Part shown: one piece after another, positions 8,241-45,807 of the stretch
Position numbering within the stretch: position 1 is the first letter of the stretch
Layout: every line of letters starts with the position of its first letter
Origin: Verrucomicrobiia bacterium
Lineage (GTDB): Bacteria > Verrucomicrobiota > Verrucomicrobiia > JADLBR01
DNA length: 64,000 nt
Assembly (NCBI GenBank): GCA_026646655.1
Contig: JAPKHT010000005.1
Span: 23,956-87,955, forward strand
Direction: 5' to 3'
Notes under the pieces: generated by a model
Told to the model about the DNA's origin: nothing
Database searches by the model: none
Seen by the model: the letters and a program-made list of their open reading frames with translations, nothing else
Made by a program: the position numbers and the translations under genes

Positions 8241-8295
8241 AAAGCATGGGCGCGGGGATGGTGGCCGAACGCACGGGCGTCTGGCCGGGGAGGCA

Positions 8296-8336
8296 GGTGG
8301 ATCGGCCCAAACGCTTGGCGCGTTCGGCTACGTGCG
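8296..8336 (-). repeat. Partial repeat family A core (second palindrome only)
   Basis: ggcccaaacgcttggcgcgttcggctacgtgcg, between the 1222-aa gene and the preferred Gfo/Idh/MocA start. Confidence 0.6.
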
Positions 8337-8338
8337 AG

Positions 8339-9703: not shown

Positions 9704-9711
9704 GGCAAATG

Positions 9712-9802
9712 AGGCTATCTCGAGAATTGCCGCAGCACTTCCCGTAGGCGAACGCGCGAGCGTTTGGGCGCGAAAGCCTCACGGCTTCGGCTACATTTTG
9801 CC
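9712..9802 (+). repeat. Dispersed repeat family A, copy 1 (forward orientation)
   Basis: ctcgagaattgccgcagcacttcccgtaggcgaacgcgcgagcgtttgggcgcgaaagcctcacggcttcggctacattttgcc. Intergenic, between the Gfo/Idh/MocA gene and hemY. Confidence 0.85.
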
Positions 9803-9811
9803 AAGCCGGGC

Positions 9812-11179: not shown

Positions 11180-11237
11180 GGGGGGCAATGTAAGGTCAAA
11201 GGGCAAAGGTCAAAAGTCAAAACCACAGGTGATATCT

Positions 11238-11322
11238 GGCTCGAGAATTGCCGCATCGCTTCCCGTAGCCGAACGCGTAAGCGTTTGGCCGCCAAAGCCT
11301 CACGGCTTCGGCTGCACTTTCA
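11238..11322 (+). repeat. Dispersed repeat family A, copy 2 (forward)
   Basis: ctcgagaattgccgcatcgcttcccgtagccgaacgcgtaagcgtttggccgccaaagcctcacggcttcggctgcactttcac. Lies between hemH and hemY and overlaps the hemH 3' end. Confidence 0.85.
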
Positions 11323-12391
11323 CCCCCGGCGGTGCCCCGTCTGCGGGGCATGATGTCTGACCCGAATATGCCTCGACCCTGCGCTGGAGGAACTCGACCC
11401 ATTTTGGGTGCTCGTTGAGGCAGGGGATCAGATCGAAGGACTCGCCGCCGGCGTCGAGGAAGGTCTTCTTTCCCATGACGCCGAGTTCCTCGAGGGTCTC
11501 GAGGCAGTCGGAGACAAAAGCGGGGGAAATGAGCAGAAGGCGGCGGGTGCCGGATTTGGCCAACCGCTCCAACTCGAAATCGGTGTAGGGCCCGAGCCAC
11601 GGGTCCTTGCCCAGGCGCGACTGGAAGGAAACGGAGTATCTCTCTGGTGAGAGGCCCGCCAGTGCGGCGAAAGCGCGGGTGGTGGCAAACACCTGGTGCC
11701 GATAGCAGACCTTGTGGACGGGATGGGGAGTGTCGCAGCAATCGGGGCGCGCGAGGCAGTGCGAACCGGAGGCGTCCGCCTTGCGGCAGTGGCGCTCGGG
11801 GATGCCGTGGTAGGAGAAGAGGAGGTGGTCGTGGGGACGATCGAGCCAGGGGCGTGCGCTCGCGACCAGGGCGGCGATGTAATCCGGGTCGGCGTAGAAA
11901 GGGGGCTGGACGGTCAGCCGGCAACCCGGTGCGGCGCGGCGCAGGACCTCACGCACGCGGACGACGACCGTCTCGTAGCTCGACATGGCATAGTGGGGGT
12001 AGAGGGGTATCAGGAGCAGGTCGTCGACGCCGTCGCCCGCGAGGTTGCGGATGACATCCGGGATCGAGGGATTGCCATAGCGCATCGCCAGCGCGACGGG
12101 GACCCGGACCCGCGCGGCGAGGAGGTCCCGCAATCTCCTGCTGCTCAGCACGAGCGGTGACCCCTCGGGCGTCCATATGGAATGATATGCCTCGGCGGAA
12201 TTGTGCACGCGTTTCGGGATGATGGCCCCGCGGACCAGCAACTGGCGGAGGACCCACGGGATATCGATCACCCGCGGGTCCAGGAGGAATTCGGTCAGGT
12301 AGCGCCGCACGTCGGGCACGGATGGCGAGTCGGGCGAACCGAGGTTCACCAGGAGCACGGCGCGGCGGGCGGGGGTTGGGTCGGCGAGCAT
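11300..12391 (-). CDS. hemH: Ferrochelatase
   Basis: 363 aa. Motifs VLLVNLGSPDSP, LIPLYPHY, SYHGIPE and LLISPAFVSDCLETLEE are typical of ferrochelatase. Confidence 0.9.
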   Translation of the reverse strand: MLADPTPARRAVLLVNLGSPDSPSVPDVRRYLTEFLLDPRVIDIPWVLRQLLVRGAIIPKRVHNSAEAYHSIWTPEGSPLVLSSRRLRDLLAARVRVPVALAMRYGNPSIPDVIRNLAGDGVDDLLLIPLYPHYAMSSYETVVVRVREVLRRAAPGCRLTVQPPFYADPDYIAALVASARPWLDRPHDHLLFSYHGIPERHCRKADASGSHCLARPDCCDTPHPVHKVCYRHQVFATTRAFAALAGLSPERYSVSFQSRLGKDPWLGPYTDFELERLAKSGTRRLLLISPAFVSDCLETLEELGVMGKKTFLDAGGESFDLIPCLNEHPKWVEFLQRRVEAYSGQTSCPADGAPPGVKVQPKP

Positions 12392-13118: not shown

Positions 13119-13805
13119 ATGCTGGGACGCATACTGGTGGTGGAAGACGATGAGGATCTGAGGGATCTGCTGGGTTCGACCATCCGGAAGGCCGGGTATC
13201 AGGTGATCACCGCGGACGGAGGACGCGCATGCCTGCGCAAGACAATCGACGAAAAGCCCGACCTGATCCTGCTCGACATCATGCTCCCCGACCTTGCGGG
13301 CACGGACGTGTGCCGTCGCCTGCGCAGCGACGGCGCGACGGCGGCCACGCCGATCATCGTGCTTTCCGCAAAGTCCGAGGAGGCCGACAGGATCCTGGGG
13401 CTTGAGGTGGGGGCCGATGACTACGTCACCAAACCCTTCAGCCCACGGGAACTGGTGGTCCGCATCGGGAAGGTCCTGGAGAGAACGCGCGGCAGGACCA
13501 TGATGTCGGATCATGTGACGGCCGGCGAACTCGTGCTTGATCGAGCGGCATACCTACTGCTCTTCCGGGGTAACGAGGTCCGGTTGACGCGCACGGAGTT
13601 TAAGCTTCTCGGGTTGCTGATGGACCGATGCGGCCGGGTGCAGACGAGGGAGCGGTTGCTGGCGGAGGTCTGGGAGTATGACACATCCATGGATACCCGG
13701 ACCGTTGACACGCACGTCCAGCGCCTGCGGGGTAAACTTGGCGAAGCGGGGAAATACATCGAGACTGTCAGGGGTTTCGGCTATCGGCTGGTGGTGCCGT
13801 CCTGA
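13119..13805 (+). CDS. OmpR-family two-component response regulator (receiver plus winged-helix)
   Basis: 228 aa. Receiver motifs ILVVEDDEDL...DLILLDIMLPDLAGTD...IIVLSAKSEE, and a C-terminal trans_reg_C motif (LTRTEFKLLGLLM...RTVDTHVQRLRGKL). Confidence 0.9.
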   Translation: MLGRILVVEDDEDLRDLLGSTIRKAGYQVITADGGRACLRKTIDEKPDLILLDIMLPDLAGTDVCRRLRSDGATAATPIIVLSAKSEEADRILGLEVGADDYVTKPFSPRELVVRIGKVLERTRGRTMMSDHVTAGELVLDRAAYLLLFRGNEVRLTRTEFKLLGLLMDRCGRVQTRERLLAEVWEYDTSMDTRTVDTHVQRLRGKLGEAGKYIETVRGFGYRLVVPS

Positions 13806-14878
13806 TGATGGCCTTGCCGGCAGCGAGACGTCCTTGGGGAAGACTGGCGGGCTGGACTTTTCCGTCCCGCTGGATCTCGCTGGCGGCGGTCTTGGCGGGC
13901 GTGATGGGGTTCGAGGGGGAGGTCTTTTCCGGGGATGACCCCGACGCTGGGCGGATCGCGGAGTGGTTGCGCCTTCCGGAGGAATCGCTGGGGGCGGCCA
14001 TGGGCCCGGGCGACTTCGAGGGCGTGATCGCGCGCGCCGGGGGAGGCGACCCAAAGGCCCAGGCGCTGGCCGGCCGATGCCAACTGGTCGGTATCGGGGG
14101 CGCTATCGACCTGGATGCTGCGGTGGGGTGGTTCCGGCGGGCGGCGGAGGCGGGCGAACCCAATGGCGAGGTCTCGCTGGGCAAGTGCTATTACTATGGG
14201 ACATGGGTGACGCAGGACTTCCGCTGCGCCGAGGGATGGTTCCGCCGGGCGGCCGACGAGGGTCACGCGCACGCGCAGGAATACCTCGGCCTGCTGGCGC
14301 TGCGGGGCGCGGTCTCCGGTCGCCCGGACCCCGGGGTTGCCGCAAACTGGTTCGCCCGGGCGGCGGACCAGGGTCTCCCGCAAAGCATGCACAATCTGGC
14401 GCGCCTGTACTCGGAAGGGCACGGCGTTGGCAAGGACCTCGATAAGGCGGTGGGGTGGTACAGGAGGGCCGCGGAGCAGGGCTTCCCGCCATCACAATAC
14501 AATCTCGGGCGCATGTATGCCGAGGGGCTCGGGTGCCCGAAAGATCTGCGCGGGGCATTCCGCTGGTATCGGGAGGCGGCCCGCCAAAATTTCGCGCCGG
14601 CCGCATACAATCTTGGCGTCATGTACGAGAACGGCATCGGCATACCGGCCAACGCCCGCGAGGCGGCCCGGTACTACCGCGATGCCGCGGAGCTGGGAGA
14701 CCCGAAGGCGCAGTACAATCTCGCGGTCCTCCTGCTGAACGGCCAGGGCGTGCCGCCGAACGCGGAAGAGGCGGTCCGGTGGCTCAGGCTGTCGGCGGCC
14801 CAGAACGACGCCTACGCGATTCGCGCCCTCGAGGATCTGGGGGCCGGCAGACCCCGGGAAATGTCCCCGATCAACTGA
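13805..14878 (+). CDS. Sel1-like repeat (TPR-like) protein, translationally coupled to the response regulator
   Basis: Eight or more Sel1 repeats of the form AxxWFRRAAEQGxxxAQYNLGxMY. The start overlaps the response-regulator stop (TGATG). Confidence 0.85.
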   Translation: MMALPAARRPWGRLAGWTFPSRWISLAAVLAGVMGFEGEVFSGDDPDAGRIAEWLRLPEESLGAAMGPGDFEGVIARAGGGDPKAQALAGRCQLVGIGGAIDLDAAVGWFRRAAEAGEPNGEVSLGKCYYYGTWVTQDFRCAEGWFRRAADEGHAHAQEYLGLLALRGAVSGRPDPGVAANWFARAADQGLPQSMHNLARLYSEGHGVGKDLDKAVGWYRRAAEQGFPPSQYNLGRMYAEGLGCPKDLRGAFRWYREAARQNFAPAAYNLGVMYENGIGIPANAREAARYYRDAAELGDPKAQYNLAVLLLNGQGVPPNAEEAVRWLRLSAAQNDAYAIRALEDLGAGRPREMSPIN

Positions 14879-14909
14879 CGTCGGGGTCATGCGGCCGCCC
14901 GACCGGCCA

Positions 14910-15062
14910 GCTCGAAAATAGCCGCAGCGCCTCCCGCAACCGAACGCGTAAGCGTTTGGCCGCCAATGCCTGACTCGAAAATTCGTAGCCACGGTCGCCA
15001 GACCGTGGACCCGGGGTTGAGTCGAACGATCTCCGGCAACCGCCGGACCAGATGGGCTACAC
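14910..15062 (+). repeat. Dispersed repeat family A, copy 3: two tandem units (forward), the second divergent
   Basis: First unit: ctcgaaaatagccgcagcgcctcccgcaaccgaacgcgtaagcgtttggccgccaatgcctga. Second unit: ctcgaaaattcgtagccacggtcgccagaccgtggac...gggctacactttggctc. Confidence 0.75.
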
Positions 15063-15190
15063 TTTGGCTCGTGCGGAATAATGGTGGCTGTCGATGGGAC
15101 GATGGCCAAACGGACGCTCGCCGGTTTCATCGGGAACTCACGAACTCAGGAAGGGCTGGGAACGGAATGGCGCTCAGTCAGGTGATGTCT

Positions 15191-15215
15191 GGGAGGGCCC
15201 GCGGCCTCGCGGGCC
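15191..15215 (+). repeat. GC-hairpin repeat family C, copy a (GGGAGGGCCCGCGGCCTCGCGGGCC)
   Basis: Perfect 8-bp GC stem GGCCCGCG/CGCGGGCC flanked by GGGAGG. Intergenic. Confidence 0.7.
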
Positions 15216-15589
15216 GCGCTGGCCACGGCAACGGCGGCGTTCGGGTGGATGGCGGACGCCGGGGGCCAACGTCCCTCCCAAAGGAAAGCGTGTGGGTCTG
15301 GCCGGCGACATCCAGACGGATACGCTCCAGACCTTCTTTCCGGCCTTCCTGAGTTCCAGATTGCACAGGCCCGATGCCGATCACAGCCGTCGCCGAGATT
15401 CCCCGCAAAATCGGAAGCATGGCCCGACGATCGCACACTAAGTTCCCTAAAGAGCCATCATAATGTCACAGTCATGTTTCAGAAGGGTTACGGGCGCCCG
15501 CACGACACCGTAACATGATTATTACATTACGTACCTTGACCGGATACCTAACATCGGGCAACAGGGGCGAGACACGAGAGGAAGTTATC

Positions 15590-16525
15590 ATGAGACACGC
15601 GCAGAGCATATTGGTGTGGATTCTAACGTTCGCGGCGCTCTCCACCGGCCTGAGGTCAGCGGAGGCGGCCCCCGTCGCCGCGCCCGGCGGGGGCGCCCCG
15701 GCCAATGGCGGCAAGCAGGTTCAGGCGACGACCGCGGCCCCGCAGCCGGGAAACGGCCAGCCCGCCCAGGGGAACGGGGACGCATGGATGAACTTCGGCA
15801 TCGATGAGTCCGTGATCCAGGAGGAGCCCAAGAAAAAGAAGATCACGCTCAAGGGCCAGTACTTCAGGACGGACGTGGGGGTGGGCGAGGTCGAGCCGAT
15901 CGCGTTCCGGCCCGATGGGGACATCGTCGTGGGGCGCACGAAGGACGGGGGCGCCATCACGGTGGATTCGGACGAGCTGGACCGGAAGGGGCTCCGCCCG
16001 GAAATCAATACCGAGGCCGGGGTGCGGGCCGCGATCGCCGCCGGATACAATTTCAATGAATACGTCGGGGTCGAGTTCGAGATACAGGCGCAGTATGCGC
16101 GGCTCGGCAGCGTGAACATCGGCGGGGGCGTGACCAACGGCAACACGCACATCGACACGGGCGGCAGCCTCTGGCAGATCCCGGTCTTCGTCAACCTGGC
16201 CGTCCAGTACCCGACGCCCTGGAACCTGACACCGTTCGCCGGCGTCGGCGGCGGCCTGCTGTTCGCCTACACGTCCATCGACCAGCCGTCGGTCGAGGCC
16301 TTCGGCCTCGAGGACCAGGGCAAGCGCGTCACGGGCACGGTGCTGACCCCGGCCTACCAGTGGTTCGGCGGCCTGCGCTGGGAGATCTCCAAGGATATCG
16401 GCCTCTATGGCATGTACAAGTTCATGGCCACCGGCGACTACTCCTACAACGGCGACATGGAGGGCATCGAATTCGACGGGATCGAGACCCACAGCTACTC
16501 GGGCGGCCTAGTATTTCGCTATTAG
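15590..16525 (+). CDS. Outer-membrane beta-barrel protein (OmpA-like/porin-family barrel)
   Basis: Signal peptide MRHAQSILVWILTFAALSTGLRSAEA, GAGGAAG SD, alternating amphipathic beta-strands, and a C-terminal aromatic residue (LVFRY), the usual terminal-aromatic signature of OM beta-barrels. The upstream region is AT-rich. Confidence 0.65.
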   Translation: MRHAQSILVWILTFAALSTGLRSAEAAPVAAPGGGAPANGGKQVQATTAAPQPGNGQPAQGNGDAWMNFGIDESVIQEEPKKKKITLKGQYFRTDVGVGEVEPIAFRPDGDIVVGRTKDGGAITVDSDELDRKGLRPEINTEAGVRAAIAAGYNFNEYVGVEFEIQAQYARLGSVNIGGGVTNGNTHIDTGGSLWQIPVFVNLAVQYPTPWNLTPFAGVGGGLLFAYTSIDQPSVEAFGLEDQGKRVTGTVLTPAYQWFGGLRWEISKDIGLYGMYKFMATGDYSYNGDMEGIEFDGIETHSYSGGLVFRY

Positions 16526-16720
16526 CGGCTTGCGAGGACCGTAACGCGATTGACGCGCGGGGAAGGGCCAAAAACGTAACAGAGTTGTTCACGGGGCGGC
16601 GCGGATCCGAAACCTTGGACGGGCAGCCTACACGCAGATCCAGAAGATCTTTTCGAGGCACGCGGGGGCCGAAAGCTCTCAAAAGGAACAGCGGAAACTA
16701 AGAGGAAAGGACAGAGGAAA

Positions 16721-17770
16721 ATGAAGAAATTGAAGGTGGTGGGTGCGCTGGTCGCTTCGGCGCTGTGCGCGGTCGGGACCCAGGCGTCCCAGGTGGCAAG
16801 GGAGAATGGGGTGCTGGCAGTGGGATTCAATGCGTCCGAGACGAAATTCGTGGGAACTCCCTTCGTCCGTCCGCCGACGGTGCTGGGTGCCGTTGTCTCC
16901 GCTGGGCCCAGCAATATCGTCACAACCGGTGGACTGACGGATGGCGAATTCAACCCCGCAGGTCCAGATAACTACTTCGAGTTGGAATTGACCTCCGGGC
17001 GGCACATCGGACTCGTCCTTGCCGTCCTGAGCAACTCGACGACCGCTGTGTACCTTGACGGGGCGCTGCCGACAACGATTCTCGAAGATACCAGCTTCGT
17101 CGTCCGGAAGAGCTGGACGGTTGGGAGCCTCTTCGGCACGAACGCGACCCAGGTTACAGGCAAGGGATTAAAGACCGGAACGACGCAGGCAAGTTCGACG
17201 ACCGTCAGGGTCTATAACCCAGCATCGAATGCCTTTAGCGTTGAGACGTTCTTCCGCAGTTCGAGCGCGCAGTGGCGTCTGGCGGGCTCCCCCACCACGG
17301 TCACGAACCTCGCGGGCGTGCGCCTTGGACCGCAAAACGCCTTCGTGATGCAACAAGGCTCGTCTGCGGGAGCGACTATCGTGCTGTTGACGGGCGAGTA
17401 TCGCAAAACTCGGTCCCTCATCTCCGCCGGGGCAGCTGCCAGCAATGATCGCACGACGTTCGCGAATCCAAGCCCATTTGCGACGACGCTCGCGACATCA
17501 GGGCTCTTCAATACAAACGGCGAGAGTTCAGCTTCGAACAGCGTCGACACCGGAACAACGGCGGGGACGGCTGATGAAGTGACGAAGTACTTCGGATCAA
17601 ACAACAGCATCACGAACTTCTTTCGCCATGCCTCCGGTTCGAATTGGAGGATCTCCGGCACCACGACCGGCGGCGATGCCACTGCGTTGGGCGCTGGCGA
17701 AGGTTTCATTTTCAAACGCCAACCGGCTGGCGAGGCATTCGTGGCATTCGACCCAGTTTTCAATGAATAA
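16721..17770 (+). CDS. Hypothetical secreted protein (lower-GC gene)
   Basis: Signal peptide MKKLKVVGALVASALCAVGTQA, an AGAGGAAAGG SD, and a Thr/Ser/Gly-rich composition. No recognisable domain. Confidence 0.6.
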   Translation: MKKLKVVGALVASALCAVGTQASQVARENGVLAVGFNASETKFVGTPFVRPPTVLGAVVSAGPSNIVTTGGLTDGEFNPAGPDNYFELELTSGRHIGLVLAVLSNSTTAVYLDGALPTTILEDTSFVVRKSWTVGSLFGTNATQVTGKGLKTGTTQASSTTVRVYNPASNAFSVETFFRSSSAQWRLAGSPTTVTNLAGVRLGPQNAFVMQQGSSAGATIVLLTGEYRKTRSLISAGAAASNDRTTFANPSPFATTLATSGLFNTNGESSASNSVDTGTTAGTADEVTKYFGSNNSITNFFRHASGSNWRISGTTTGGDATALGAGEGFIFKRQPAGEAFVAFDPVFNE

Positions 17771-17813
17771 GAGGATGTGAAATAAAGGAACTCACAAGAA
17801 AAGGAACAGACCC

Positions 17814-18470
17814 ATGAAAAAACAACTTACAATCGCGGCGTTCGCCCTGGCTATGACTGCCAGCGGCTGGGCGCAGGTAAACGGCTACTACGCCGCTGGC
17901 AACAGCCTCGACTTCACCAACGTGCTGAGCGCTGGAGGCGGCAGCCTCGGTCTCGGGAATGTCGTGGCCTACGGGAATTTCAACGGCGCGTACTCTGATA
18001 CGGACCTCCAGAACTTCCTATCGGGCGGGCTCACTCCTGCCGAGCTGGCGTCTATCAACGGCGCATTTGATCCGCTGTTCCTTTGGGACATCGGCGATGG
18101 CACGGGTGCGGCAGGTACATTCGAAGTCACTCCGACGACGAACAACGCCACGGCAACGCCGTTTGCAGATGAGCGGATGTACATGCTGATCTACAATGTG
18201 TCTGATTTCGCTAATGCTGATCTGGCGACAGAGTTTGGAGTGTTGCGAAACGACTTCGATCTCGGCACCGGCGGTCGATTTGGAACGCCGGGCGCATTTC
18301 CGATCAGCAGCGAAGGCATCGTGTTCCCCGACAACCAGACGGCGCTGATCGGGTCCTATGTGTCTGGCGGGTTTCAATTGGCCTCGGTTGTCATTCCCGA
18401 GCCTGGGACGTGGGCGATGCTCCTGATCGGGCTGGGGATGGTGGCATGGCGCGCTCGGCGGAAGCGCTAA
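17814..18470 (+). CDS. PEP-CTERM sorting-domain protein
   Basis: Signal peptide, and a C-terminal VIPEPGTWAMLLIGLGMVAWRARRKR (PEP motif, TM helix, basic tail). Confidence 0.8.
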   Translation: MKKQLTIAAFALAMTASGWAQVNGYYAAGNSLDFTNVLSAGGGSLGLGNVVAYGNFNGAYSDTDLQNFLSGGLTPAELASINGAFDPLFLWDIGDGTGAAGTFEVTPTTNNATATPFADERMYMLIYNVSDFANADLATEFGVLRNDFDLGTGGRFGTPGAFPISSEGIVFPDNQTALIGSYVSGGFQLASVVIPEPGTWAMLLIGLGMVAWRARRKR

Positions 18471-18513
18471 TCGAGCGCGTATCAGAAACTTGAAGGGATA
18501 GGAGAAATCTGAA

Positions 18514-20523
18514 ATGAAGATGAGATTGAAGCAGTTCGGGGCGGCGGTGGCGGGGCTGGCGATGGCGGGCGCGGGGAACGCGGCGTTCAACGCGGGGCAG
18601 TACACGAATGGCGTGCCGCAGACGGTGAACGGGGTGACGTTCGTGCTGGTGACCGACCCGGCGAGCGCGATCACGCGGATCACGAACGACACGCGGTGGA
18701 CGGCGAACAACGTGTACGTGCTGGACAAGCTGACTTTCGTGGCGGGCGGGGCGACCCTGGTCATCGAGCCGGGGACGCTGATCCGGGGCGAGCGTCCCTT
18801 GAACAAGACGGGGACGCTGGCGCAGCCGGCGGACCCCGGGACGCTGATCTGCGCGAAGGGCTCGAAGATCATCGCGAACGGGACGGCGGAGTCGCCGATC
18901 ATCATGACGTCGATCGATGATCCGTACGTGCCCGGGGGGACGAACACGATCCCGCCGTGGCTGAACACCAACGCGTTCACCGACCTCGACTGGAAGTACT
19001 ACGACAACACGGTCGAGGACCTGTACGGGGGTGCCGACGAGGGCGGCAACGCGTACGGGCAGCAGGGGTGGTGGGGCGCGCTGGGGATCGCGGGGCAGGC
19101 CCGCGTGGCGCAGAACAACACGAATGGCACGACCTTCGACCTGTCGACCTTCACGAACGGGCAGAACCTGGCCGTCGGGGGCGACTATATCGAGGGCTTC
19201 CAGAGCGTGAGCGATGGCGCCTATGGCGGCACCGACGACGACGACAACAGCGGCGTCTATCGGTTCATATCGATCCGGTATTCGGGGTTCGTGCTGACGC
19301 CGAACAACGAGCTCAATGGGGTGACGTTCGGCGGCGTGGGGCGGGGCACGACGGTGGAGTTCATGGAGTCGTTCAACTCGATGGATGACGGGTTCGAGTG
19401 GTTTGGCGGCTGCGTGAACGCGAAGTATCTGGCGGCGCTCTTCGCCGCGGACGAGGCGTTCGACTACGACGAGGGGTACCGGGGCAACAACCAGTTCCTG
19501 CTGGCGATGCAGGGCAACAAGTACGTCAAGACGAACGCGTCCTCGGGGTACGTCAACACGGGTCGTCCGACCCCGACCGAACAGAATGGGAACCCGCCAT
19601 CGAGCGAGACGATGATCCACGACTCCCTGTTCGAGTGCGATGGCGCCGAGCCCGACAACGGCGGCGGGCGCCCGTATTCGATCCCGAAGTTCTACAACGT
19701 GACGGGCATCGGGCGCGGCACGAACGAGACGCAGACGAGGGACCGGAACGGCCTGCGCTTCAAGCTGGATGCGGGGGGCAAGTTCTACAACGCCATCTTC
19801 GTGGAGCAGGATGGGGGGACGGACAACCTGAGCATCGAGGATGTGACGACGAGCAACAAGTTCGTGTCGGTGCGGTCGACGGGCGGCGAGTACGGGTTCT
19901 CGACGAACGGCGCGGCGGCCACCGAGGAGGACCTGCTGTTTCGGGCGTGCTCCTGGTACGACATCGGCAATGGCGGCGCGACCACGGCGGCGGCCATCAA
20001 CCGGGATGGCTCGACGGTGAAGGATGCGCTGGCGTCGCAGTTCCTGACCAACGCGGCGTACCAGAACACGTTTGACGTGGCCCCCGGCATCGTGAGGGTG
20101 GGGCGGGTCGTCGGCCAGGAGTTCGACCCGAGGCTGACGGGTGGTTCCGCGATGCGCGGCAACACGACATTCACGGCGCCCAACGATGGGTTCTTCACGC
20201 CGAGCGCGAATTTCCGCGGCGCGTTCCGCGACAACTTCTGGCTGAAGGGCTGGTCGTTGCTGGATTATCTGGGCGTCAACACGACCAACGCGTCGGCGTC
20301 GATCAACCCGGTGGTGTCGCTGTCATCCTATGACGGCACCAACGTCGTGGTCTCCTTCGACTCGCAGGCCGGGGTGTACTACTCGATCGAGCGGTCGCTC
20401 GACGGCAAGGCGTACACGCCGCTGACGGTGATCGCGGGCGCCGGGGCCGGGACCACGGTGTACACGAACGTGAACGCCGCCCCGATCTCGGGGGCATTGC
20501 TCTACCGCGTGCTGGCGCTGTAG
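18514..20523 (+). CDS. Large hypothetical secreted protein (possible beta-helix/adhesin-like)
   Basis: 669 aa with signal peptide MKMRLKQFGAAVAGLAMAGAGNA and a GGAGAAA SD. Asn/Gly/Thr-rich. Confidence 0.6.
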   Translation: MKMRLKQFGAAVAGLAMAGAGNAAFNAGQYTNGVPQTVNGVTFVLVTDPASAITRITNDTRWTANNVYVLDKLTFVAGGATLVIEPGTLIRGERPLNKTGTLAQPADPGTLICAKGSKIIANGTAESPIIMTSIDDPYVPGGTNTIPPWLNTNAFTDLDWKYYDNTVEDLYGGADEGGNAYGQQGWWGALGIAGQARVAQNNTNGTTFDLSTFTNGQNLAVGGDYIEGFQSVSDGAYGGTDDDDNSGVYRFISIRYSGFVLTPNNELNGVTFGGVGRGTTVEFMESFNSMDDGFEWFGGCVNAKYLAALFAADEAFDYDEGYRGNNQFLLAMQGNKYVKTNASSGYVNTGRPTPTEQNGNPPSSETMIHDSLFECDGAEPDNGGGRPYSIPKFYNVTGIGRGTNETQTRDRNGLRFKLDAGGKFYNAIFVEQDGGTDNLSIEDVTTSNKFVSVRSTGGEYGFSTNGAAATEEDLLFRACSWYDIGNGGATTAAAINRDGSTVKDALASQFLTNAAYQNTFDVAPGIVRVGRVVGQEFDPRLTGGSAMRGNTTFTAPNDGFFTPSANFRGAFRDNFWLKGWSLLDYLGVNTTNASASINPVVSLSSYDGTNVVVSFDSQAGVYYSIERSLDGKAYTPLTVIAGAGAGTTVYTNVNAAPISGALLYRVLAL

Positions 20524-20672
20524 GGACCGGTCAAGCGGGTGCGGCCAGGGCCGCAGGACTCGATTAGGGGGGTCGCGCCGCCTCGGTGGCGCGGCCCCTT
20601 CGAGTTCGGGGGACGCGGGTGGATACGGTGAGGATGGTCCGGGGTGGCGTGTTGGGTCGAGAGTGTGGAGAT

Positions 20673-22235
20673 ATGGCGACGCGAATAAGACGGTTTGGTG
20701 GCGCGGTGTGCGCGTGGCTCCTGTGCCTGCCCGGGGCCGCCTGGGATGCGCAGGCGGCGGCGGGGAAGGCGGAGTTTCCCGAGGCGTACCGGATCGCCGT
20801 GGAGTTCAGCGAGTTTCTGCGGACGGATTCTGAGCGGGAGGCGAAGTACAAGGAGCGCATCGCGATCCGGTTGGCCGAGGATGGTTTCTTCAGTCAGGCG
20901 GTCGACCTGCTGGGGGGCGTGTCGATGAGCGAATGGAGGCGGCCGCAGGGCATGGCCGGGGTCGCGGCCATCGCCGCGCAGGCGGGAGAGATGGATCTGG
21001 CGCGGGAGCTGACCGGGCGTGCGTCGGCCGAGATCGAACTGCATGGCGACTGGCGGCGTGCCCGCGTGGCGGCGGAGGTGGTGGCGGCCCTCGGGGAGCA
21101 AGGGCGATTCGAGGAGGCGCGACCGCTGTGGGCGACCCTGGAGGGACACGATGGCGAACGGGACTACGCGGCCGGTCGGCTTTGCGCGGCGGCGGCGCGC
21201 CTGAATCGCAGCGACGCATGGGGGGAGCTTTCGGGGGGTGACGGGGCAGGGAAGAGTTCGGGACTCGTGACCTCGGAGGCGAACGCCCTGGTCAATGCGG
21301 CGGCATGGTGCCAGACCCGGGGCGATGCCGGGCGGGCGAAGGAATTTGCGGCACGCGCGCGGGGACTGGCGGAAGGCTTGCTCGCATGGGATGGCTCCGG
21401 GTTGATGGCGGAGGTGGCGACCCAGCTGCGCATGTCCGGGCTCCAGGACGATGCGCGGGCGATGCTCGACGAGGCCGAAACGGTGGCCCTGGCGCTGCCC
21501 GATGGGGTGGCGTGGAAGGCGCAAAATCTCGTGCGGGTCGCGGACGCGCTGCTCGGATTCGGAGATCGCGACCGGGCCGGCGCCCTGTTGGAGGTTGCGG
21601 CCAGACAGCCGGCCCTCCTCCAGCCTCTGGAACGCGGCGAGAGCGCGGCGGCCGTGGCGTACGGGTATCAGCGGCTCCATGGGGGGGACGAGGCCGCCCG
21701 GCGCTGGCTCGCGGCGGCCGAGGTGGCGCTGAAGGATGTGACACACCACCGGGTGCGGAGCATGAGCGTGATCGATACCTGCCTGGCCATGGGCAAGGCG
21801 GGTGTCGCGCCATCGGAATCCGTGAGGGCCTGCCTCGGGCAGGTGCGGGCGATCGTGGAGCGGGACGTGGCCGCGTGGGAGAAGGAGTTTGGGCCCCCGA
21901 AGAAGATCCTGCCGCCCGGGGTCCCGACAACGCGTGGCCACGGTCGCCGTGCCGTGGACGCACCCGCGGGACCATCTGGCCAGAAACTTCGAAGTTCCAT
22001 GCACCACGACGCGTTTCACAACAAACACCTAAACCGTTGGTTATGCGGATGCCGCCTTAAGGCGGCACTACGAGCCCAAGACCACGGGGGTGTTCGTAGT
22101 GCTGCCTTCAGGCAGCCCGGATCCACCAGGTGTCTCCGCATGCAGGAGGCGGGGCGTGCGCGCGCGGGCGGAGGAGTCGGTCCAGAATCACAATCGGCGC
22201 GGTGCTGCCACACGAATGTAACAGAGTGGGCCTAG
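20673..22235 (+). CDS. Hypothetical exported alpha-helical (HEAT/TPR-like) repeat protein; 3' end unreliable
   Basis: Signal peptide MATRIRRFGGAVCAWLLCLPGAAWDAQA and Ala/Leu-rich helical repeats. The frame stays open through the repeat-B element at 22021-22140, and the last ~80 codons look non-coding (Cys/His/Arg junk). Confidence 0.5.
   Translation: MATRIRRFGGAVCAWLLCLPGAAWDAQAAAGKAEFPEAYRIAVEFSEFLRTDSEREAKYKERIAIRLAEDGFFSQAVDLLGGVSMSEWRRPQGMAGVAAIAAQAGEMDLARELTGRASAEIELHGDWRRARVAAEVVAALGEQGRFEEARPLWATLEGHDGERDYAAGRLCAAAARLNRSDAWGELSGGDGAGKSSGLVTSEANALVNAAAWCQTRGDAGRAKEFAARARGLAEGLLAWDGSGLMAEVATQLRMSGLQDDARAMLDEAETVALALPDGVAWKAQNLVRVADALLGFGDRDRAGALLEVAARQPALLQPLERGESAAAVAYGYQRLHGGDEAARRWLAAAEVALKDVTHHRVRSMSVIDTCLAMGKAGVAPSESVRACLGQVRAIVERDVAAWEKEFGPPKKILPPGVPTTRGHGRRAVDAPAGPSGQKLRSSMHHDAFHNKHLNRWLCGCRLKAALRAQDHGGVRSAAFRQPGSTRCLRMQEAGRARAGGGVGPESQSARCCHTNVTEWA
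22021..22140 (+). repeat. Structured repeat family B, copy 1 (double hairpin: ccgccTTAAggcgg, cactacgag...ttcgtagtg, ctgccTTCAggcag)
   Basis: About 85% identical to 45625-45745 over the core gccgccttaaggcggcactacgagcccaagaccacgggggtgttcgtagtgctgccttcaggcag. Confidence 0.75.
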
Positions 22236-22245
22236 AGATTCTCGC

Positions 22246-25173: not shown

Positions 25174-25199
25174 GGATTTGGTGGAGCAAGAGCAGGAGG

Positions 25200-25976
25200 A
25201 TGAAGACGATGAGACAGTGCACATTGACATTGGCGGCGGTTCTGATGGCGGCCGTGGCGCACGGGCAAGAGGCGTCCGTCTCGCCGCTGAAGGACGCGCG
25301 GCTGAAGCTGGAGAAGTGGGTGGAGGCCGAGCAGCTGATCTCCAAGGAGCGCCAGGACTGGGAGCTGGGCAAGCAGATCCTGGAGGAGCGGGTGTCGCTG
25401 GTGGAGCGTGAGATCAAGGAACTGGGGGAGAAGACCGCCGGGGCGCGGAAGAAGGCGGAGGATGCGGGCTCGGAGAACGGGAAGCTGCGGGCGGAGCGGG
25501 ACACGCTGGAGCAGGCGGGGGCGTTTCTGGCGGAGCGGGTGCCGACGCTGGAGCGGCGGGTGAAGGGGGAGGTGCTGCCGCTGTTGCCGGACGTGCTGCG
25601 GCAGAAGGTGAAGCCGCTGGTGCGGCGGATGCCGGAGAATCCCGCGGAGTCGAAGCTGACGTTATTGGAGCGGTACCAGAACGTGGTGGGGATCCTGAAC
25701 GAGGTGGACAAGTTCAACCGCGAGGTGGTGGTGAGCCGGGAGCTGCGGGCGGTGGGGGACGGGAAGACCGCCGAGGTGCGCACGCTGTACCTGGGGCTCG
25801 GGCAGGCGTTCTACGCGAACCCGGAGAAGGGCGTGGCCGGGCGGGGGATCCCGACGGAGGGCGGCTGGAAGTGGGAGGACATGCAGGGCGCGGCGGGCCA
25901 GATCGCGGAGGCGATCGGCATTTCGGAGAACGAGAAGGTGGCGGACTTCGTGCCGCTGCCGGTGAAGGTGCAGTGA
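25200..25976 (+). CDS. DUF3450-family periplasmic coiled-coil protein (TtpB-like component of TonB2-type systems)
   Basis: Signal peptide MKTMRQCTLTLAAVLMAAVAHGQEA, a strong AGGAGGA SD, and coiled-coil heptads. Sits immediately 5' of the ExbB-like genes. Confidence 0.6.
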   Translation: MKTMRQCTLTLAAVLMAAVAHGQEASVSPLKDARLKLEKWVEAEQLISKERQDWELGKQILEERVSLVEREIKELGEKTAGARKKAEDAGSENGKLRAERDTLEQAGAFLAERVPTLERRVKGEVLPLLPDVLRQKVKPLVRRMPENPAESKLTLLERYQNVVGILNEVDKFNREVVVSRELRAVGDGKTAEVRTLYLGLGQAFYANPEKGVAGRGIPTEGGWKWEDMQGAAGQIAEAIGISENEKVADFVPLPVKVQ

Positions 25977-26088
25977 TACCAACCACGGATGGACACGAAT
26001 GGACGCGAATGGTTTCCCTCGTAGCTGCCGACGTAAGGAGGCAGTCCCACTTAACCACGGATGGAAACGGATGAACACGGACGGGCCT

Positions 26089-27501: not shown

Positions 27502-27512
27502 GGTTTGCGAAG

Positions 27513-28127
27513 ATGGCGGATCTCCTGAAACAGGCGCTGGATATCTGGCAGAAGGGCGGGTGGGCGATGGTGCCCCTGGCCATCGTGAGCTTCATGCTCT
27601 TTTACAAGGGCATGGAGATACGGCTGGCGCTGAAGGACAAGGCGTACCGCAGGGTGGCGGAGCCCGAGTGGCGGGGATGGATCGGGGAGGCCGGGGGTCG
27701 GAAGGGGCCGATCGGGCGGATCATCCATTTCGCGATGCAGAGCCACGACCTCGAGGAGATCGGCGCCCGGTTTGCGGAGATCCGGATCGGGGAGCTGAAG
27801 CCCTTTGCGCGGGATCTCCGGTTCATGAAGGTGTGCGTGGCGGCGGCGCCGCTGCTGGGGCTGCTCGGGACGGTGACGGGGATGTTCGCGACGTTCCAGG
27901 GGCTGTCGATGGGGGGCGGCGGCGAGAAGACGATGGACATGGTGTCGGGCGGCATCTCGGAGGCGCTGATCACGACGCAGACGGGCCTGGTGATCGCGCT
28001 GCCCGGCTATTTCTGGCACTACCAGCTCGCGAGGGAGCGGGACCGGTACGCGGCCTTTCTGGCGCACATGGAGAGCCTGTGCGCGCAGTTCATACACAAG
28101 TGCGTCAAGAAGGGGAGGAAGGCATGA
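27513..28127 (+). CDS. exbB: MotA/TolQ/ExbB proton-channel protein
   Basis: 204 aa with ExbB signature AAPLLGLLGTVTGMFATFQG...SGGISEALITTQTGLVIALP. Confidence 0.85.
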   Translation: MADLLKQALDIWQKGGWAMVPLAIVSFMLFYKGMEIRLALKDKAYRRVAEPEWRGWIGEAGGRKGPIGRIIHFAMQSHDLEEIGARFAEIRIGELKPFARDLRFMKVCVAAAPLLGLLGTVTGMFATFQGLSMGGGGEKTMDMVSGGISEALITTQTGLVIALPGYFWHYQLARERDRYAAFLAHMESLCAQFIHKCVKKGRKA

Positions 28128-28148
28128 GCGAGAGGCTGTTCCTTAGCG

Positions 28149-28208
28149 GACGCCGGGGCCGGCGTCCCTCCGCGCTTGAGGCGGGAGGGCCCGCGGCCTC
28201 GCGGGCCG
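28149..28208 (+). repeat. GC-hairpin repeat family C, copy b (two modules: gacgccggggccggcgtc + gggagggcccgcggcctcgcgggcc)
   Basis: Intergenic between exbB and exbD. Both palindromes were read directly. Confidence 0.7.
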
Positions 28209-28227
28209 GGAGCCAGGGAGGCGATCC

Positions 28228-28638
28228 ATGAAGCGATTCCAGACACTCGAGGAAGACAGCGGGGAGGGCGGGATCGACATGTCGCCCCTCATCGACTGCG
28301 TGTTCATCCTGCTGATCTTCTTCATCGTGACGACGACGTTCGTGGAGGAGACGGGGATCGAGGTGGACAAGCCGCAGGCGGCGTCGGCGTCGAATTTGGA
28401 GAAGAACAGCATCCTGCTGGCGGTCACCGCGGACGGCGCCGTGGTGTACGGGGGGCGGGACATCGGGTTGAACGGGGTGCAGCCGCTGGTGAAGCGGATG
28501 ATCGCGCAGGAGGACATGCCGGTGATCGTGCAGGTGGACAAGAGCGCGCAGGCGGGGCTCTTCGTGCGGGTGATCGACGAGGCGAAGCTGGCGGGCGCGA
28601 CGAAGGTGAGCGTCGCGACCGCGAGGGTGGTCCAGTAG
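28228..28638 (+). CDS. exbD: ExbD/TolR biopolymer transport protein
   Basis: 136 aa with a GGGAGG SD. The TM helix and ExbD motifs are present ([21 protein letters not shown]...[15 protein letters not shown]). Confidence 0.9.
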
Positions 28639-28671
28639 GGCGGTTCGCGGGATGGCGAGCGGGCATCGTGC

Positions 28672-29337
28672 ATGAGCGCGTCACTTAAGGAAGGGCCGGG
28701 GCTGTTTCGGTGGCTGCGCTCCGTATTCTGGGCGGTCGCGTTCAGCGTGGCGGTGTTCCTGGTGCTGCCGTTGCTGCAGGTGATCGGCGGGGGCGGGGGC
28801 AAGGACGATCTGCTGCGGCTGGTGGACGTCGCGCAGCTGCCTCCGCCGGTCGCGCCGCAGGAGCCGCCGCCGGAGCAGAAGCAGGAGGAGCCGGAGCCCG
28901 AGCCGGACCAGGCGCCGCCGGCGCCGCTGGACCTGTCGCAGCTGGAGCTGGCGCTGAATCCGGGTGCGGTGGGCGGCGATGGGGCGGGCATGATCGCGGA
29001 CCTGACGCGGGCGGCGTTCAGCAGGGCGGCGGAGGGCGTGGATGTCGAGGAGGTGTTTTCGGCCTCGGACCTGGACCAGCCGCCGAAGGTGGTCAACCAG
29101 GTGAAGCCGAACTACCCGCCGGAGCTGCGCAAGCAGGAGATCACGGGGCGTGTGCTGGTGGCATTCACCGTGCTGGCCGACGGGAGGGTGACCAACGTGC
29201 GCGTCGATCAATCGACCAACCCGGCGTTCGACCAGGCGGCGCTCGCGGCGGTGCGGCAGTGGCGGTTCGAGCCGGGGCAGAAGGGCGGCAAGTCCGTCTC
29301 GTTTCGCATGAGGATACCGATCAGTTTCAAGCCGTGA
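28672..29337 (+). CDS. tonB: TonB-family energy transducer (N-terminal TM anchor, Pro-rich spacer, TonB C-terminal domain)
   Basis: Pro/Glu-rich spacer PPPVAPQEPPPEQKQEEPEPEPDQAPP, then a C-terminal domain KPNYPPELRKQEITGRVLVAFTVLADGRVTNVRVDQS...FEPG. Confidence 0.85.
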   Translation: MSASLKEGPGLFRWLRSVFWAVAFSVAVFLVLPLLQVIGGGGGKDDLLRLVDVAQLPPPVAPQEPPPEQKQEEPEPEPDQAPPAPLDLSQLELALNPGAVGGDGAGMIADLTRAAFSRAAEGVDVEEVFSASDLDQPPKVVNQVKPNYPPELRKQEITGRVLVAFTVLADGRVTNVRVDQSTNPAFDQAALAAVRQWRFEPGQKGGKSVSFRMRIPISFKP

Positions 29338-29413
29338 TGGAGGAGATATGAAATCGAGTGGAGACAGCAATCTTGCCGCGATGGGCGCTATCGTGGATGG
29401 CGCATCCTCAGAC

Positions 29414-29497: not shown

Positions 29498-29521
29498 CCT
29501 TCCCGGATCTTGCGGTGGGGG

Positions 29522-30871
29522 ATGGTTCCCCTGGGCTTTGCCCTGGCCTCCGGGGTTTCGGCCCAAGAGCCACAGCCCTCGTGGCCGGTCAACTATTTCC
29601 GCTCGGAGGAATTCAAGCGGGATTTCTTGGGCAGCTATGGCATGCGGACCGACATCGAGCCCTACCTCTCCACCGAGGAGGAGAAGACGCGGATGCAGGA
29701 ACTCACGGACCTGATCGCGACCAACCCGCGGCAGGCGGTGCGCGACCTGATGGAGTACATCACCGACGAGACCAACGCGCAGTTCGATTTCACCCTGGGC
29801 AACCTGTATTTTCAGGGCGGTGACATCGACCGGGCGGCCTCGCGATACTTCCAGGCGACGAAGAAATTTCCGAATTTCCTCCGGGCGCACAAGAACCTGG
29901 GGATGATCCATTTTCGGAAGGGCCGGAACGCGGAGGCGATCAAGTCGCTGACGCGGGCGGTGGAGCTCGGGGGCGCGGACGGGACGGTGCTGGGGATCCT
30001 CGGCCTGGCGTACCTGAACACGGAGCGCTGGCTCTCGGCGGAGTCCGCGTACCGGAGCGCGCTGCTGCTCCAGCCCGACGTGGCGGATTGGAAGCTGGGG
30101 CTGGCGCGGGCGCTGTTCTCACAGCAGAAATTTGGCGAGGTCAGCGCGCTGATCGACGAGATGATACAGCAGTCGCCGGACCGCGCGGACTACTGGCTGC
30201 TCCAGGCCAACGCGTTCATCGGAATGAACCAGCCGATGAAGGCGGCGCAGAACTACGAGATGCTGATCCGGATGAACAAGGCGACGCCCGAGGCGCTGAA
30301 CCTGCTGGGCGACATCTACGTCAACGAGAAGCTCTACGGGCTGGCCGCGAGGGCCTACGTGATGGCGATGGATGTGGAGCCCGACAAGGGGCTGCCGTCC
30401 GGTGTCCGCGCGGCGGAGATCCTGGCGCAGCGGGGGGCCACCGCCGCGGCGAAGGATGTCGTGAAAGGGCTCCGCGACGCGGGCCTGGACAAGCTGGCGG
30501 CGGAGGACAAGCGGCGGGTGCTGAAGACCGAGGCGAGGGTGGCGGCGGCCGAGGGGGCGGGGGACGAGGCGGCGAAGGTGCTGCACGAGATCGTGGATCT
30601 CGACCCGCTCGACGGCGAGGCATTGCTGCTGCTGGGGCAGCACTACGGGCGCAAGGGCGAGCCGGAGAAGGCAATCTTCATGTACGAGCGGGCGGCGGGC
30701 ATCGAGGCCTTCGAGGCGGACGCCAAGGTGCGCCACGCGCAGTTGCTGGTGGAGCAGGGCAAGCTCGAGCCGGCCGTGCCGTTGCTCAAGCGCGCTCAGG
30801 AGATCAAGCCGCGCGACAGCGTCGGCCAGTTCCTCGACCAGGTGGAGCGGATTGTCAGGAGGCGACGGTAG
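29522..30871 (+). CDS. Tetratricopeptide-repeat protein (TtpD-like accessory of TonB2-type systems); alternative start 29348
   Basis: Signal peptide MVPLGFALASGVSAQEP followed by multiple TPR units. The upstream ATG at 29348 has a GGAGGAG SD, but it would put a repeat-C element and a 58-aa n-region inside the CDS. Confidence 0.75.
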   Translation: MVPLGFALASGVSAQEPQPSWPVNYFRSEEFKRDFLGSYGMRTDIEPYLSTEEEKTRMQELTDLIATNPRQAVRDLMEYITDETNAQFDFTLGNLYFQGGDIDRAASRYFQATKKFPNFLRAHKNLGMIHFRKGRNAEAIKSLTRAVELGGADGTVLGILGLAYLNTERWLSAESAYRSALLLQPDVADWKLGLARALFSQQKFGEVSALIDEMIQQSPDRADYWLLQANAFIGMNQPMKAAQNYEMLIRMNKATPEALNLLGDIYVNEKLYGLAARAYVMAMDVEPDKGLPSGVRAAEILAQRGATAAAKDVVKGLRDAGLDKLAAEDKRRVLKTEARVAAAEGAGDEAAKVLHEIVDLDPLDGEALLLLGQHYGRKGEPEKAIFMYERAAGIEAFEADAKVRHAQLLVEQGKLEPAVPLLKRAQEIKPRDSVGQFLDQVERIVRRRR

Positions 30872-31006: not shown

Positions 31007-31010
31007 GACG

Positions 31011-45745: not shown

Positions 45746-45807
45746 CCCTGAATAATCCGGCGCGTGGAGAACTCTGGCCATCTCCGCCCGCGTCAACGCA
45801 TGGGGGC

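Follow-up and report, generated by a model that had tools for sequence, protein, structure and literature searches.

Pairs of a TonB-dependent transporter (TBDT) and a putative extracellular 'lid' include BT4055/BT4056, Fjoh_0546 and ElpS, the homologues of which are adjacent in 621 genera; surface export of such lipoproteins is not known outside Bacteroidota, yet the family is broadly distributed, a puzzle raised in the same work (Price and Arkin, bioRxiv 10.1101/2023.03.17.533168). In Flavobacterium johnsoniae, the TBDT Fjoh_0545 carries Plug, CarbopepD_reg_2 and OMP_b-brl_3 domains, and its neighbour Fjoh_0546 ('FII') is a pectin-lyase-fold lipoprotein. The two genes lie side by side in the phoBR operon, and their products rank with the proteins that depletion of inorganic phosphate (Pi) induces most strongly (PMC8115612). 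They are related to ElpS, a Pi-starvation-induced surface lipoprotein of Caulobacter crescentus that is associated with alkaline phosphatase activity (PMC2996285). In this study, we report the analysis of a 64-kb stretch of the genome of a Verrucomicrobiia bacterium (contig JAPKHT010000005.1, 64,000 nucleotides; hereafter the window), and of one same-strand gene cluster within it (13119-30871), whose surface-protein genes are named g1 to g5, and describe a TBDT that is encoded there together with a beta-helix protein (g4), a PEP-CTERM protein (g3) and an energiser of its own (Table 1).

Two further described systems bear on this locus. The TonB2 and TonB3 operons of Vibrio have the gene order ttpB (DUF3450)-ttpC-exbB-exbD-tonB-ttpD, and a receptor gene precedes TonB3 (PMC6957404). 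The PEP-CTERM/exosortase system for protein sorting was described by Haft et al. (2006, PMC1569441).

The cluster opens with a PhoB-like regulator and a Sel1-repeat protein, continues with g1 to g5 and the TBDT, and closes with a six-gene energiser. No kinase gene adjoins the regulator, the stop codon of which overlaps the start of the Sel1 gene, and only g5 (its start taken from the Logan gene call) stands between g4 and the TBDT. The TBDT carries CarboxypepD_reg, CarbopepD_reg_2, Plug, TonB_dep_Rec_b-barrel and OMP_b-brl_3 domains, among them all three of those listed for Fjoh_0545, and the Pfam order of the genes that follow it at 25200-30871 (DUF3450, long MotA/ExbB, ExbB, ExbD, TonB, tetratricopeptide repeat (TPR)) is the six-component order of the TonB2/TonB3 type. 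The locus is flanked by core genes, upstream by hemH and a protoporphyrinogen-oxidase-like gene, and downstream by those for L25, pth, S6, ssb, L9, dnaB, bamA, skp and lpxD. As the overall explanation, we consider it likely that g1-g4 are the front of a conserved verrucomicrobial outer-membrane operon for TonB-powered uptake. Its observed core is the conserved operon, the pairing of the TBDT with a PF28492 protein, the TonB2/3-type energiser, the PEP-CTERM signal of g3, and an allelic cassette with its junctions.

A sequence-only reading of the window had taken 15400-20523 for a lower-GC island encoding four consecutive secreted or cell-surface proteins, and its description of the products was largely borne out. 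Four consecutive signal-peptide genes on the plus strand (g1-g4) are read directly from the translations. The predicted outer-membrane beta-barrel, g1, is barrel-like, with an N-terminal signal peptide, a PF13505 match just below the cutoff and a C-terminal FRY. The predicted PEP-CTERM signal of g3 scored above the cutoffs of PF07589 (E 8.3e-8, 32.5 bits against 20.7) and TIGR02595 (24.2 bits against 16). The C-terminus of g3, VVIPEPGTWAMLLIGLGMVAWRARRKR, contains the PEP motif, then a transmembrane helix and, at the extreme end, a basic cluster, and its N-terminal Sec signal peptide, read by eye from the translation, is MKKQLTIAAFALAMTASGWA/QV. The Thr/Ser-rich and Asn/Gly-rich compositions claimed for g2 and g4 were roughly as found (T 12.9%, S 10.0%, A 11.7% and G 11.2% in g2; G 13.0% and N 8.1% in g4). 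The notion of a surface-structure module also stands, in that all four products are exported and belong to the same functional locus. The right-handed beta-helix (pectin-lyase superfamily) fold was recognised in g4, the N-terminus of which, MKMRLKQFGAAVAGLAMAGAGNAAF, has no Cys and hence no lipobox of an outer-membrane lipoprotein. Sequence searches of PDB chains with g4 (and its family profile) and with g2 gave no meaningful match.

The pairing of g4 with a transporter was found to extend far beyond the Verrucomicrobiota. A scan of GTDB species genomes identified 587 relatives of g4 in Verrucomicrobiota, Bacteroidota, Ignavibacteriota, Latescibacterota, Zixibacteria, Fibrobacterota, Gemmatimonadota and other phyla, and a TBDT of the same type adjoins the g4 homologue in 70 of the 82 loci analysed, which come from the Fibrobacterota-Chlorobiota-Bacteroidota (FCB) and Planctomycetota-Verrucomicrobiota-Chlamydiota (PVC) groups and from other phyla. 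A Bacteroidota lipoprotein homologue of 451 amino acids (P0129) matches PF28492 and is encoded beside a PhoB-like regulator and PHO4. A search with a Bacteroidaceae homologue as query retrieved PF28492 proteins, all of them without a name. Since the Bacteroidota lipoprotein homologues share PF28492 with g4, it is likely that g4 belongs to the ElpS/Fjoh_0546/BT4056 lid family, as its Pfam family, fold, architecture and neighbourhood suggest. By analogy with these proteins, g4 is probably the extracellular substrate-binding partner, or lid, of the TBDT. It counts against this assignment that the link to ElpS, Fjoh_0546 and BT4056 is drawn through architecture, fold class, neighbourhood and a new Pfam family, PF28492.

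A third architecture was seen in Opitutae-type loci (L018, L019, L023, L031, L047 and L066), where the TBDT is followed by a g4 homologue of ~600-640 amino acids, with no g2, g3 or g5. In these homologues the signal peptide is plain and the C-terminal beta-sandwich is of another kind, with ...EVYE(V/I)x as its end, and one of the loci (L019) adjoins pstSCAB-phoU.

Clustering of the genes around g4 homologues showed that the recurrent neighbours are phosphate genes, namely PstB, PstA and PstS (above NCBIfam cutoffs), PhoU (by Pfam), PHO4, PhoB-like regulators and histidine kinases. At least one gene for Pst, PhoU or PHO4 is present in 24 of the 82 loci, and the count rises to 33 when PhoB-like regulators and kinases are included. 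The best NCBIfam match of the regulator at 13119-13805 is PhoB (TIGR02154, 234 bits against a cutoff of 296), and PhoB-like regulators also adjoin the module in three other loci (L015, L127 and L171). By analogy with the characterised relatives, the locus may be regulated by phosphate starvation and serve a phosphorus-containing substrate, a proposal for which we see the chances as evenly balanced. Several observations speak against it. Of 89 PVC-type loci, only 2 have pst, phoU or PHO4 alongside and 5 have a PhoB-like regulator there, many of these contigs being short; the regulator of the window falls below the PhoB cutoff and has no PhoR beside it; matches to an Escherichia coli-type Pho box are at the level of chance (3 found, 2.25 expected); and even the characterised relatives lack a known substrate.

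The same neighbourhoods bear on whether the locus is instead of the polysaccharide-utilisation type, with g4 a secreted polysaccharide lyase or hydrolase, its oligosaccharide products imported through the TBDT and no relation to phosphate. The beta-helix fold is equally common in adhesins and binding proteins (Vag8, NosD, PfbA). There is no Pfam match to a carbohydrate-active enzyme (CAZyme) and no sequence-similar solved structure, neither sugar catabolic nor SusD-like genes occur in this locus or in related ones, and the recurrent neighbours are pst, phoU, PHO4 and phoBR. We therefore consider a glycan-degrading locus improbable.

An opposite direction of transport has also to be weighed, in which the TBDT would secrete g2, g3 or g4 instead of importing a substrate. 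Oar of Myxococcus is reported to be required for secretion of PopC (PMC6434023), and the TBDT of the window shares its CarboxypepD_reg, Plug and barrel architecture with Oar-type transporters; no route by which g4 would cross the outer membrane was recognised, and a dedicated energiser is encoded downstream. Against this, the FCB pairs include g4 homologues that have their own export routes, by the type IX secretion system (T9SS) or as surface lipoproteins, and the pairing is therefore independent of a need for export. Adjacency to Pi uptake genes also suggests import. Secretion through the TBDT is on balance quite unlikely, and the uptake operon is the reading retained here.

The operon was found to be conserved in distant relatives. 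The nearest non-self homologues of g4 are only ~43% identical, yet their contigs are collinear with the window. In a Verrucomicrobiae metagenome-assembled genome (MAG; L003), the order Sel1, g1, g2, g3, g4, g5, TBDT, DUF3450, ExbB, TonB, TPR is kept, with BLASTP identities, all collinear, of 64% for the Sel1 protein in the same position upstream of the module, 52% for g1, 52% for g2, 55% for g3, 43% for g4, 42% for the TBDT, 45% for the DUF3450 protein, 46% for the long ExbB (L3_484), 60% for TonB and 72% for the TPR protein (L3_428). The g3 orthologue of this genome is likewise a PEP-CTERM protein, ending VIPEPGTW...RRRR. The order from g1 to the TBDT is conserved also in a Verrucomicrobiales MAG (L005), where g1 is 38% and the TBDT 40% identical; g5 shows weak similarity to L5_410 (28%, E 3e-17). 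In L003 (1-20652), energiser operons of the TonB2/3 type lie on both sides of the module, upstream of Sel1 and downstream of the TBDT, whereas the window has the downstream energiser only, and a PhoB-like regulator upstream instead.

These comparisons decide the question of an island. A horizontally acquired insertion of four surface-protein genes into the chromosome would agree with the fall in GC to 0.573, the atypical codon usage of g2 and g3, the repeats at the left border and the true exchange of a core (16811-18378) between strains. It is rejected because synteny is conserved in distant Verrucomicrobiae MAGs; the same gene order recurs in Verrucomicrobiales and in dozens of metagenome loci. 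The sequence-only reading had itself named conserved synteny as an observation that would speak against an island, and conserved synteny, with core genes on both flanks, is what was found. The 64-kb window has no tRNA gene, and those of its genes that were scanned against Pfam include neither an integrase nor a transposase; the GC content at third codon positions (GC3) of g1 and g4 is native and extreme; and the exchanged segment substitutes homologous genes and adds none. None of the marks of a genomic island, whether absence or loss of synteny in relatives, mobility hallmarks (among the genes scanned) or atypical composition throughout, was present. An inserted island is thus very unlikely, and g1-g4 are the upstream half of a vertically inherited same-strand locus, 13119-30871.

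The repeats noticed at the left border do exist, and what fails is their meaning as an island border. They are dispersed elements that resemble repetitive extragenic palindromic (REP) sequences, with further short intergenic copies at 22052-22114 and 45659, and copies of the hairpin sit between genes of the TonB operon. We considered the flanking repeats as borders of a mobile element and rejected this, as they recur in many intergenic regions. Short-read contigs of two strains of this organism break at dispersed repeats, at 15235 and 22088.

Windowed GC and codon-usage analysis showed that composition is not uniform, and that the deviation is limited to g2 and g3. The mean GC of 1-kb segments across the window is 0.667 (standard deviation 0.027). 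Between 15000 and 16500 it is 0.64-0.65, about one standard deviation below the mean, and the true dip lies at 16500-18500 (0.603, 0.585 and 0.573), so that the AT-rich segment proposed for 15400-18500 is real over its later part, and its extension to four genes is not upheld. Four 1-kb segments in the whole window fall below 0.61, three of them in this dip and the fourth at 45501-46500. GC3 is 0.706 in g2 and 0.708 in g3, compared with a mean of 0.865 (standard deviation 0.055) for the other 40 genes (z = -2.9), and codon-usage divergence within the cluster is greatest for these two genes (Kullback-Leibler divergence 0.18 and 0.21). In g1 and g4, GC3 is 0.907 and 0.936, typical to extremely high for this genome. 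GC at first codon positions (GC1) is low in g2, g3 and g4 (0.54-0.58), in their orthologues too, and the low overall GC of g4 results from its low GC1 (0.56), which reflects amino-acid composition. The g2 and g3 orthologues in L003 and L005 have normal GC3 (0.77-0.83). High expression, the second cause suggested by the sequence-only reading, does not agree with the finding that the low-GC genes g2 and g3 show the weakest GC3 bias. The spacers are AT-rich as described (GC 0.48 at 15440-15590, 0.42 at 17771-17813 and 0.44 at 18471-18513), and purine-rich Shine-Dalgarno sequences precede g2, g3 and g4, but their promoter-like character was not supported by a sigma-70 consensus scan of 14800-22300, which gave 0 sites against 1.0 expected. 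A terminator consensus scan of the same interval found 0 against 4.9 expected.

The only other dip of similar depth in the window, at 45392-46192 between gatC and the next gene, is ~0.8 kb of non-coding DNA of GC 0.58 that carries dispersed repeat copies and has no Rfam match at the gathering threshold.

The dip coincides with a segment that differs between strains. A homologue of g2 (P0128) has the same first 30 residues as the window protein and is only ~45% identical overall. At least 3 sequencing runs gave independent assemblies of its contig (L173). Identity of this contig to the window is 99.37% over 15235-16810 and 99.22% over 18379-22088, and the stretch between them cannot be aligned; the junctions are sharp, at 16810/16811 and 18378/18379. 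The products of the two alleles are 46% identical for g2, with identical signal peptides (amino acids 1-30) and a variable mature part, and 38% for g3, with a conserved PEP-CTERM tail. Both cassettes have a GC of 0.584-0.585 and GC3 of 0.71-0.73, compared with 0.63 and 0.675 for the flanks. The window allele was found, identical, in 4 other independent SRA assemblies. Mature g2 of the conspecific strain is 41% identical to that of the window, compared with 52-56% for organisms whose g4 is only 43% identical. As the conspecific protein is more distant than that of remote organisms, the genealogy of the alleles is decoupled from that of the locus (g4). The segment 16811-18378 is thus a swappable allelic cassette, exchanged by homologous replacement inside a vertically inherited operon. 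The acquisition proposed by the sequence-only reading therefore holds on a smaller scale, for a 1,568-bp core that is exchanged DNA and not an inserted island.

A similar break occurs in a related species of ~83% nucleotide identity (range 82-84%; L012, a chimeric ENA contig of which only the first 6.8 kb were used), where nucleotide similarity resumes at 18359; g4 is ~90%, g5 77% and the TBDT 73% identical there, but g2 only 57% and g3 46-62%. The genes of this contig are fragmented by frameshifts, and the window-related first 6.8 kb (57-70% GC) are followed, at 6800-11399, by Bacteroidota-like genes of ~32% GC. The assembly of an NCBI MAG from the same population as the window breaks immediately to the right of the cassette, which is what mixed strains would produce. 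It weighs against a general rule that in most lake populations the divergence of g2 and g3 more or less parallels that of g4, swapping being recurrent and not universal, and that further decoupled pairs are few (L132 compared with L008, L151 and L153).

We infer that the GC dip is the footprint of a recombining allele pool, and that neither a foreign island nor high expression produced it. That the low GC of g2 and g3 instead comes from amino-acid composition or high expression, and the strain difference from misassembly or paralogy, is as remote as an inserted island, for although low GC1 here and in orthologues makes the dip partly compositional, and the Logan contigs of both alleles share end coordinates, GC3 is low as well (0.71 against 0.865) where the orthologues of L003 and L005 are normal, both alleles span both junctions in independent runs (L010 and L011; L173-L175), the window contig is continuous through the locus, the shared contig ends fall on dispersed repeats, and the MAG of the same population breaks where mixed strains would cause it to. 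Diversifying selection by phages or grazers may maintain the cassette alleles, a cause that we put forward as a possibility somewhat short of an even chance.

The cassette has two recombination arms, one formed by the codons for the g2 signal peptide with the DNA upstream of them, the other by the PEP-CTERM codons of g3 with the DNA downstream. A separate recombining pool would give the cassette its low GC and GC3, and selection on exposed epitopes, for example by phages, would keep the pool in being.

In order to characterise the genes that accompany g4, 166 loci with g4 homologues were examined using iterated hidden Markov models for g2, g3 and g5. A metagenome scan with g4 alone gave no close relatives, and an alignment-based scan yielded 80 metagenome loci. 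The core g2-g3-g4-g5 is present in roughly 50 of these 80, and in more when loci truncated by contig ends are counted; it was also found in several MAGs, one of them binned as Planctomycetaceae. This PVC-type module often has two g3 paralogues, with its TBDT on one side or the other and g1 sometimes present; g5 always lies downstream of g4 in it, and follows g4 directly in 69 loci. FCB-type loci have only the TBDT and g4. In 61 of 63 loci, the g3-family proteins encoded upstream of g4 end in a PEP-CTERM tail. Where g3 lies upstream, 47 of 48 complete g4 proteins lack an anchor of their own, either lipobox or T9SS C-terminal domain, whereas 52 of the 75 g4 proteins without g3 are anchored (34 by a T9SS C-terminal domain, 18 by a lipobox), some of the remainder being false negatives.

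This complementary distribution of anchors suggests, as a reading of sequence patterns, that g3 acts with g2, g1 and g5 to hold the lid on the cell surface or to assemble it there. More specifically, g4 might be tethered in trans via g3 and exosortase, which we offer as a tentative possibility. It is likewise conceivable, with no greater confidence, that the PVC lid has lost its own anchor and is held by a co-encoded set centred on exosortase-anchored g3, together with g2, g1 and g5, and that the exposed ectodomains of g2 and g3 are hypervariable, probably under pressure from phages or grazers. Two points weigh on the other side. The pattern of anchors is confounded by phylogeny, T9SS and surface lipoproteins being FCB traits and PEP-CTERM being common in PVC bacteria, and no match to an exosortase family was found among the genes of the 64-kb window scanned against Pfam.

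In the mechanism that we propose, the locus would build an outer-membrane uptake machine driven by its own TonB energiser. Phosphate shortage would switch it on to capture a phosphorus-containing substrate, and g4 would sit on the extracellular face of the TBDT and capture that substrate, as proposed for Fjoh_0546 (FII), BT4056 and ElpS. As both a lipid anchor and a T9SS domain are missing from g4, g3, with an exosortase encoded elsewhere, would tether or assemble it together with g2, g1 and g5.

Table 1. Genes, allelic cassette and repeats of the locus, with positions in the 64-kb window
Feature	Position	Strand	Supporting match or detail
OmpR/PhoB-family response regulator	13119..13805	+	Pfam Response_reg and Trans_reg_C
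Sel1-repeat protein, seven repeats	13805..14878	+	PF08238, E 3e-62
62-nt dispersed REP-like repeat	14910-14971		copies at 11239-11300, 30941-30991, 48569-48625
28-nt perfect GC hairpin, GGGAGGGCCCGCGGCCTCGCGGGCCGCG	15191-15218		copies at 28183-28208, 29472-29499, 31009-31036
g1, small outer-membrane beta-barrel, 312 aa	15587..16525	+	PF13505, E 4.8e-6, 27.3 bits (cutoff 28.7)
g2, secreted all-beta protein, 349 aa	16721..17770	+	no Pfam family
Allelic cassette (mature g2, g2-g3 spacer, mature g3 up to the PEP-CTERM signal)	16811..18378		1,568 bp, GC 0.584
g3, PEP-CTERM-anchored protein, 218 aa	17814..18470	+	PF07589, TIGR02595
g4, secreted right-handed beta-helix protein with C-terminal immunoglobulin (Ig)-like domain, 669 aa	18514..20523	+	PF28492
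g5, exported Ala/Leu/Arg-rich helical protein, 509 aa	20706..22235	+	no Pfam match
TBDT, Oar/SusC-like type, 975 aa	22246..25173	+	domain matches
DUF3450 protein (TtpB-like), first gene of the energiser	25200..25976	+	PF11932, E 4.5e-25
Long MotA/ExbB-family protein (TtpC-like), 500 aa	25999..27501	+	PF01618, E 1.5e-28
ExbB	27513..28127	+	PF01618, E 4.6e-21
ExbD	28228..28638	+	PF02472, E 3.9e-28
TonB	28672..29337	+	TonB_C, E 8.2e-24
TPR protein (TtpD-like), last gene of the cluster	29522..30871	+	multiple TPR families

Other parts of the window were also annotated. Rfam gave no match in the locus; elsewhere in the window it identified a single element, a cobalamin riboswitch (RF00174) at 54349-54568 on the minus strand, scoring 45.5 bits. 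The riboswitch heads a minus-strand cluster (46193-54237) that encodes a protein of 467 aa with no family, an He_PIG protein of 750 aa, a DUF4430 protein, a further protein of 302 aa, a double ABC ATPase and a membrane protein; this is probably a locus for B12 capture and uptake. In two other loci (L008 and L009), He_PIG genes and genes for proteins of ~360 aa also adjoin the g2-g5 module. A bacterial homologue of pentameric ligand-gated ion channels (Neur_chan_LBD, Neur_chan_memb) is encoded at 57996-59381 on the minus strand. On the plus strand, 4572-8240 encodes a 1,222-aa fusion of ThuA, HEAT repeats, an F5/8 type C domain and DUF6807, which has xylose-isomerase-like TIM barrel genes and GFO/IDH/MocA oxidoreductase genes as neighbours.

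The TBDT with a beta-helix partner is among the most widespread transporter-plus-lid pairs, and the Flavobacterium pair is among the protein sets most strongly induced by phosphate starvation. The verrucomicrobial version offers a testable answer to the puzzle of Price and Arkin, as it has an anchorless lid that never comes without a PEP-CTERM protein and a further three exported proteins. Although environmental bacteria have PEP-CTERM proteins in abundance, almost none of these has an assigned role; a fixed position in an uptake operon offers one. If anchoring in trans were true, PEP-CTERM proteins would gain a concrete role in a machine for nutrient uptake, and the display of lids by diderms other than Bacteroidota would be explained. 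Additionally, the cassette (1.6 kb, with 99% identical flanks and products 38-46% identical) is a clear natural case, in uncultured freshwater or soil Verrucomicrobia, of allele swapping at an exposed surface structure, and can be used to mark strains and to point to candidate phage receptors.

Set beside the systems already described, the core of the locus is a member of a known and poorly understood kind, while the PVC-type accessory set, the fixed place of a PEP-CTERM protein in a TBDT operon and the sharply bounded hypervariable g2-g3 cassette appear to be undescribed. Neisserial TbpB, encoded next to TbpA, is a hypervariable partner of a TonB-dependent transporter that is kept variable by recombination. 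The likeness is that an exposed accessory protein shows far greater variation than the conserved transporter next to which it is encoded, and that strains exchange whole alleles. Here, however, the variable genes are g2 and g3 and not the putative lid g4 (99% conserved), and in an environmental organism the selective agent would be phages or grazers instead of antibody. In common with the SusC/SusD polysaccharide-utilisation loci of Bacteroidota, the operon combines a CarboxypepD_reg-type TBDT, an extracellular partner and further surface proteins; it differs from them in having no SusD-like protein and no CAZymes, in its own TonB system and in its phylum.

The domain order receptor, DUF3450, long MotA/ExbB, ExbB, ExbD, TonB, TPR is that of the Vibrio TonB2/TonB3 operons, with the orthology of the window genes to TtpC and TtpD judged from domains only. 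Those gammaproteobacterial systems are iron-regulated, whereas the system of the window is tied to a PF28492 partner and probably to phosphate. With the PEP-CTERM system the locus shares the tripartite signal of g3 (VIPEPGTW, a hydrophobic helix and RRKR) and an N-terminal signal peptide, the signal scoring above Pfam and TIGRFAM cutoffs. It departs from that system in that g3 lies outside a neighbourhood of exopolysaccharide biosynthesis, with no exosortase among the scanned window genes, and is a fixed member of a TBDT operon with a hypervariable mature domain. The likeness to ElpS, FII and BT4056 lies in a right-handed beta-helix protein, g4, whose gene neighbours that of a TBDT with CarboxypepD_reg, Plug and OMP_b-brl_3 domains, in the conservation of this pair from phylum to phylum, in the pst/phoBR surroundings of its relatives, and in the PhoB-like regulator that stands upstream in the window. 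Unlike these proteins, g4 is not a lipoprotein: its signal peptide is a plain one, and it has an additional Ig-like domain at the C-terminus. Encoded with it are g1, g2, g3 (the PEP-CTERM protein) and g5, none of which belongs to the systems described, and a strain-variable cassette is its neighbour.

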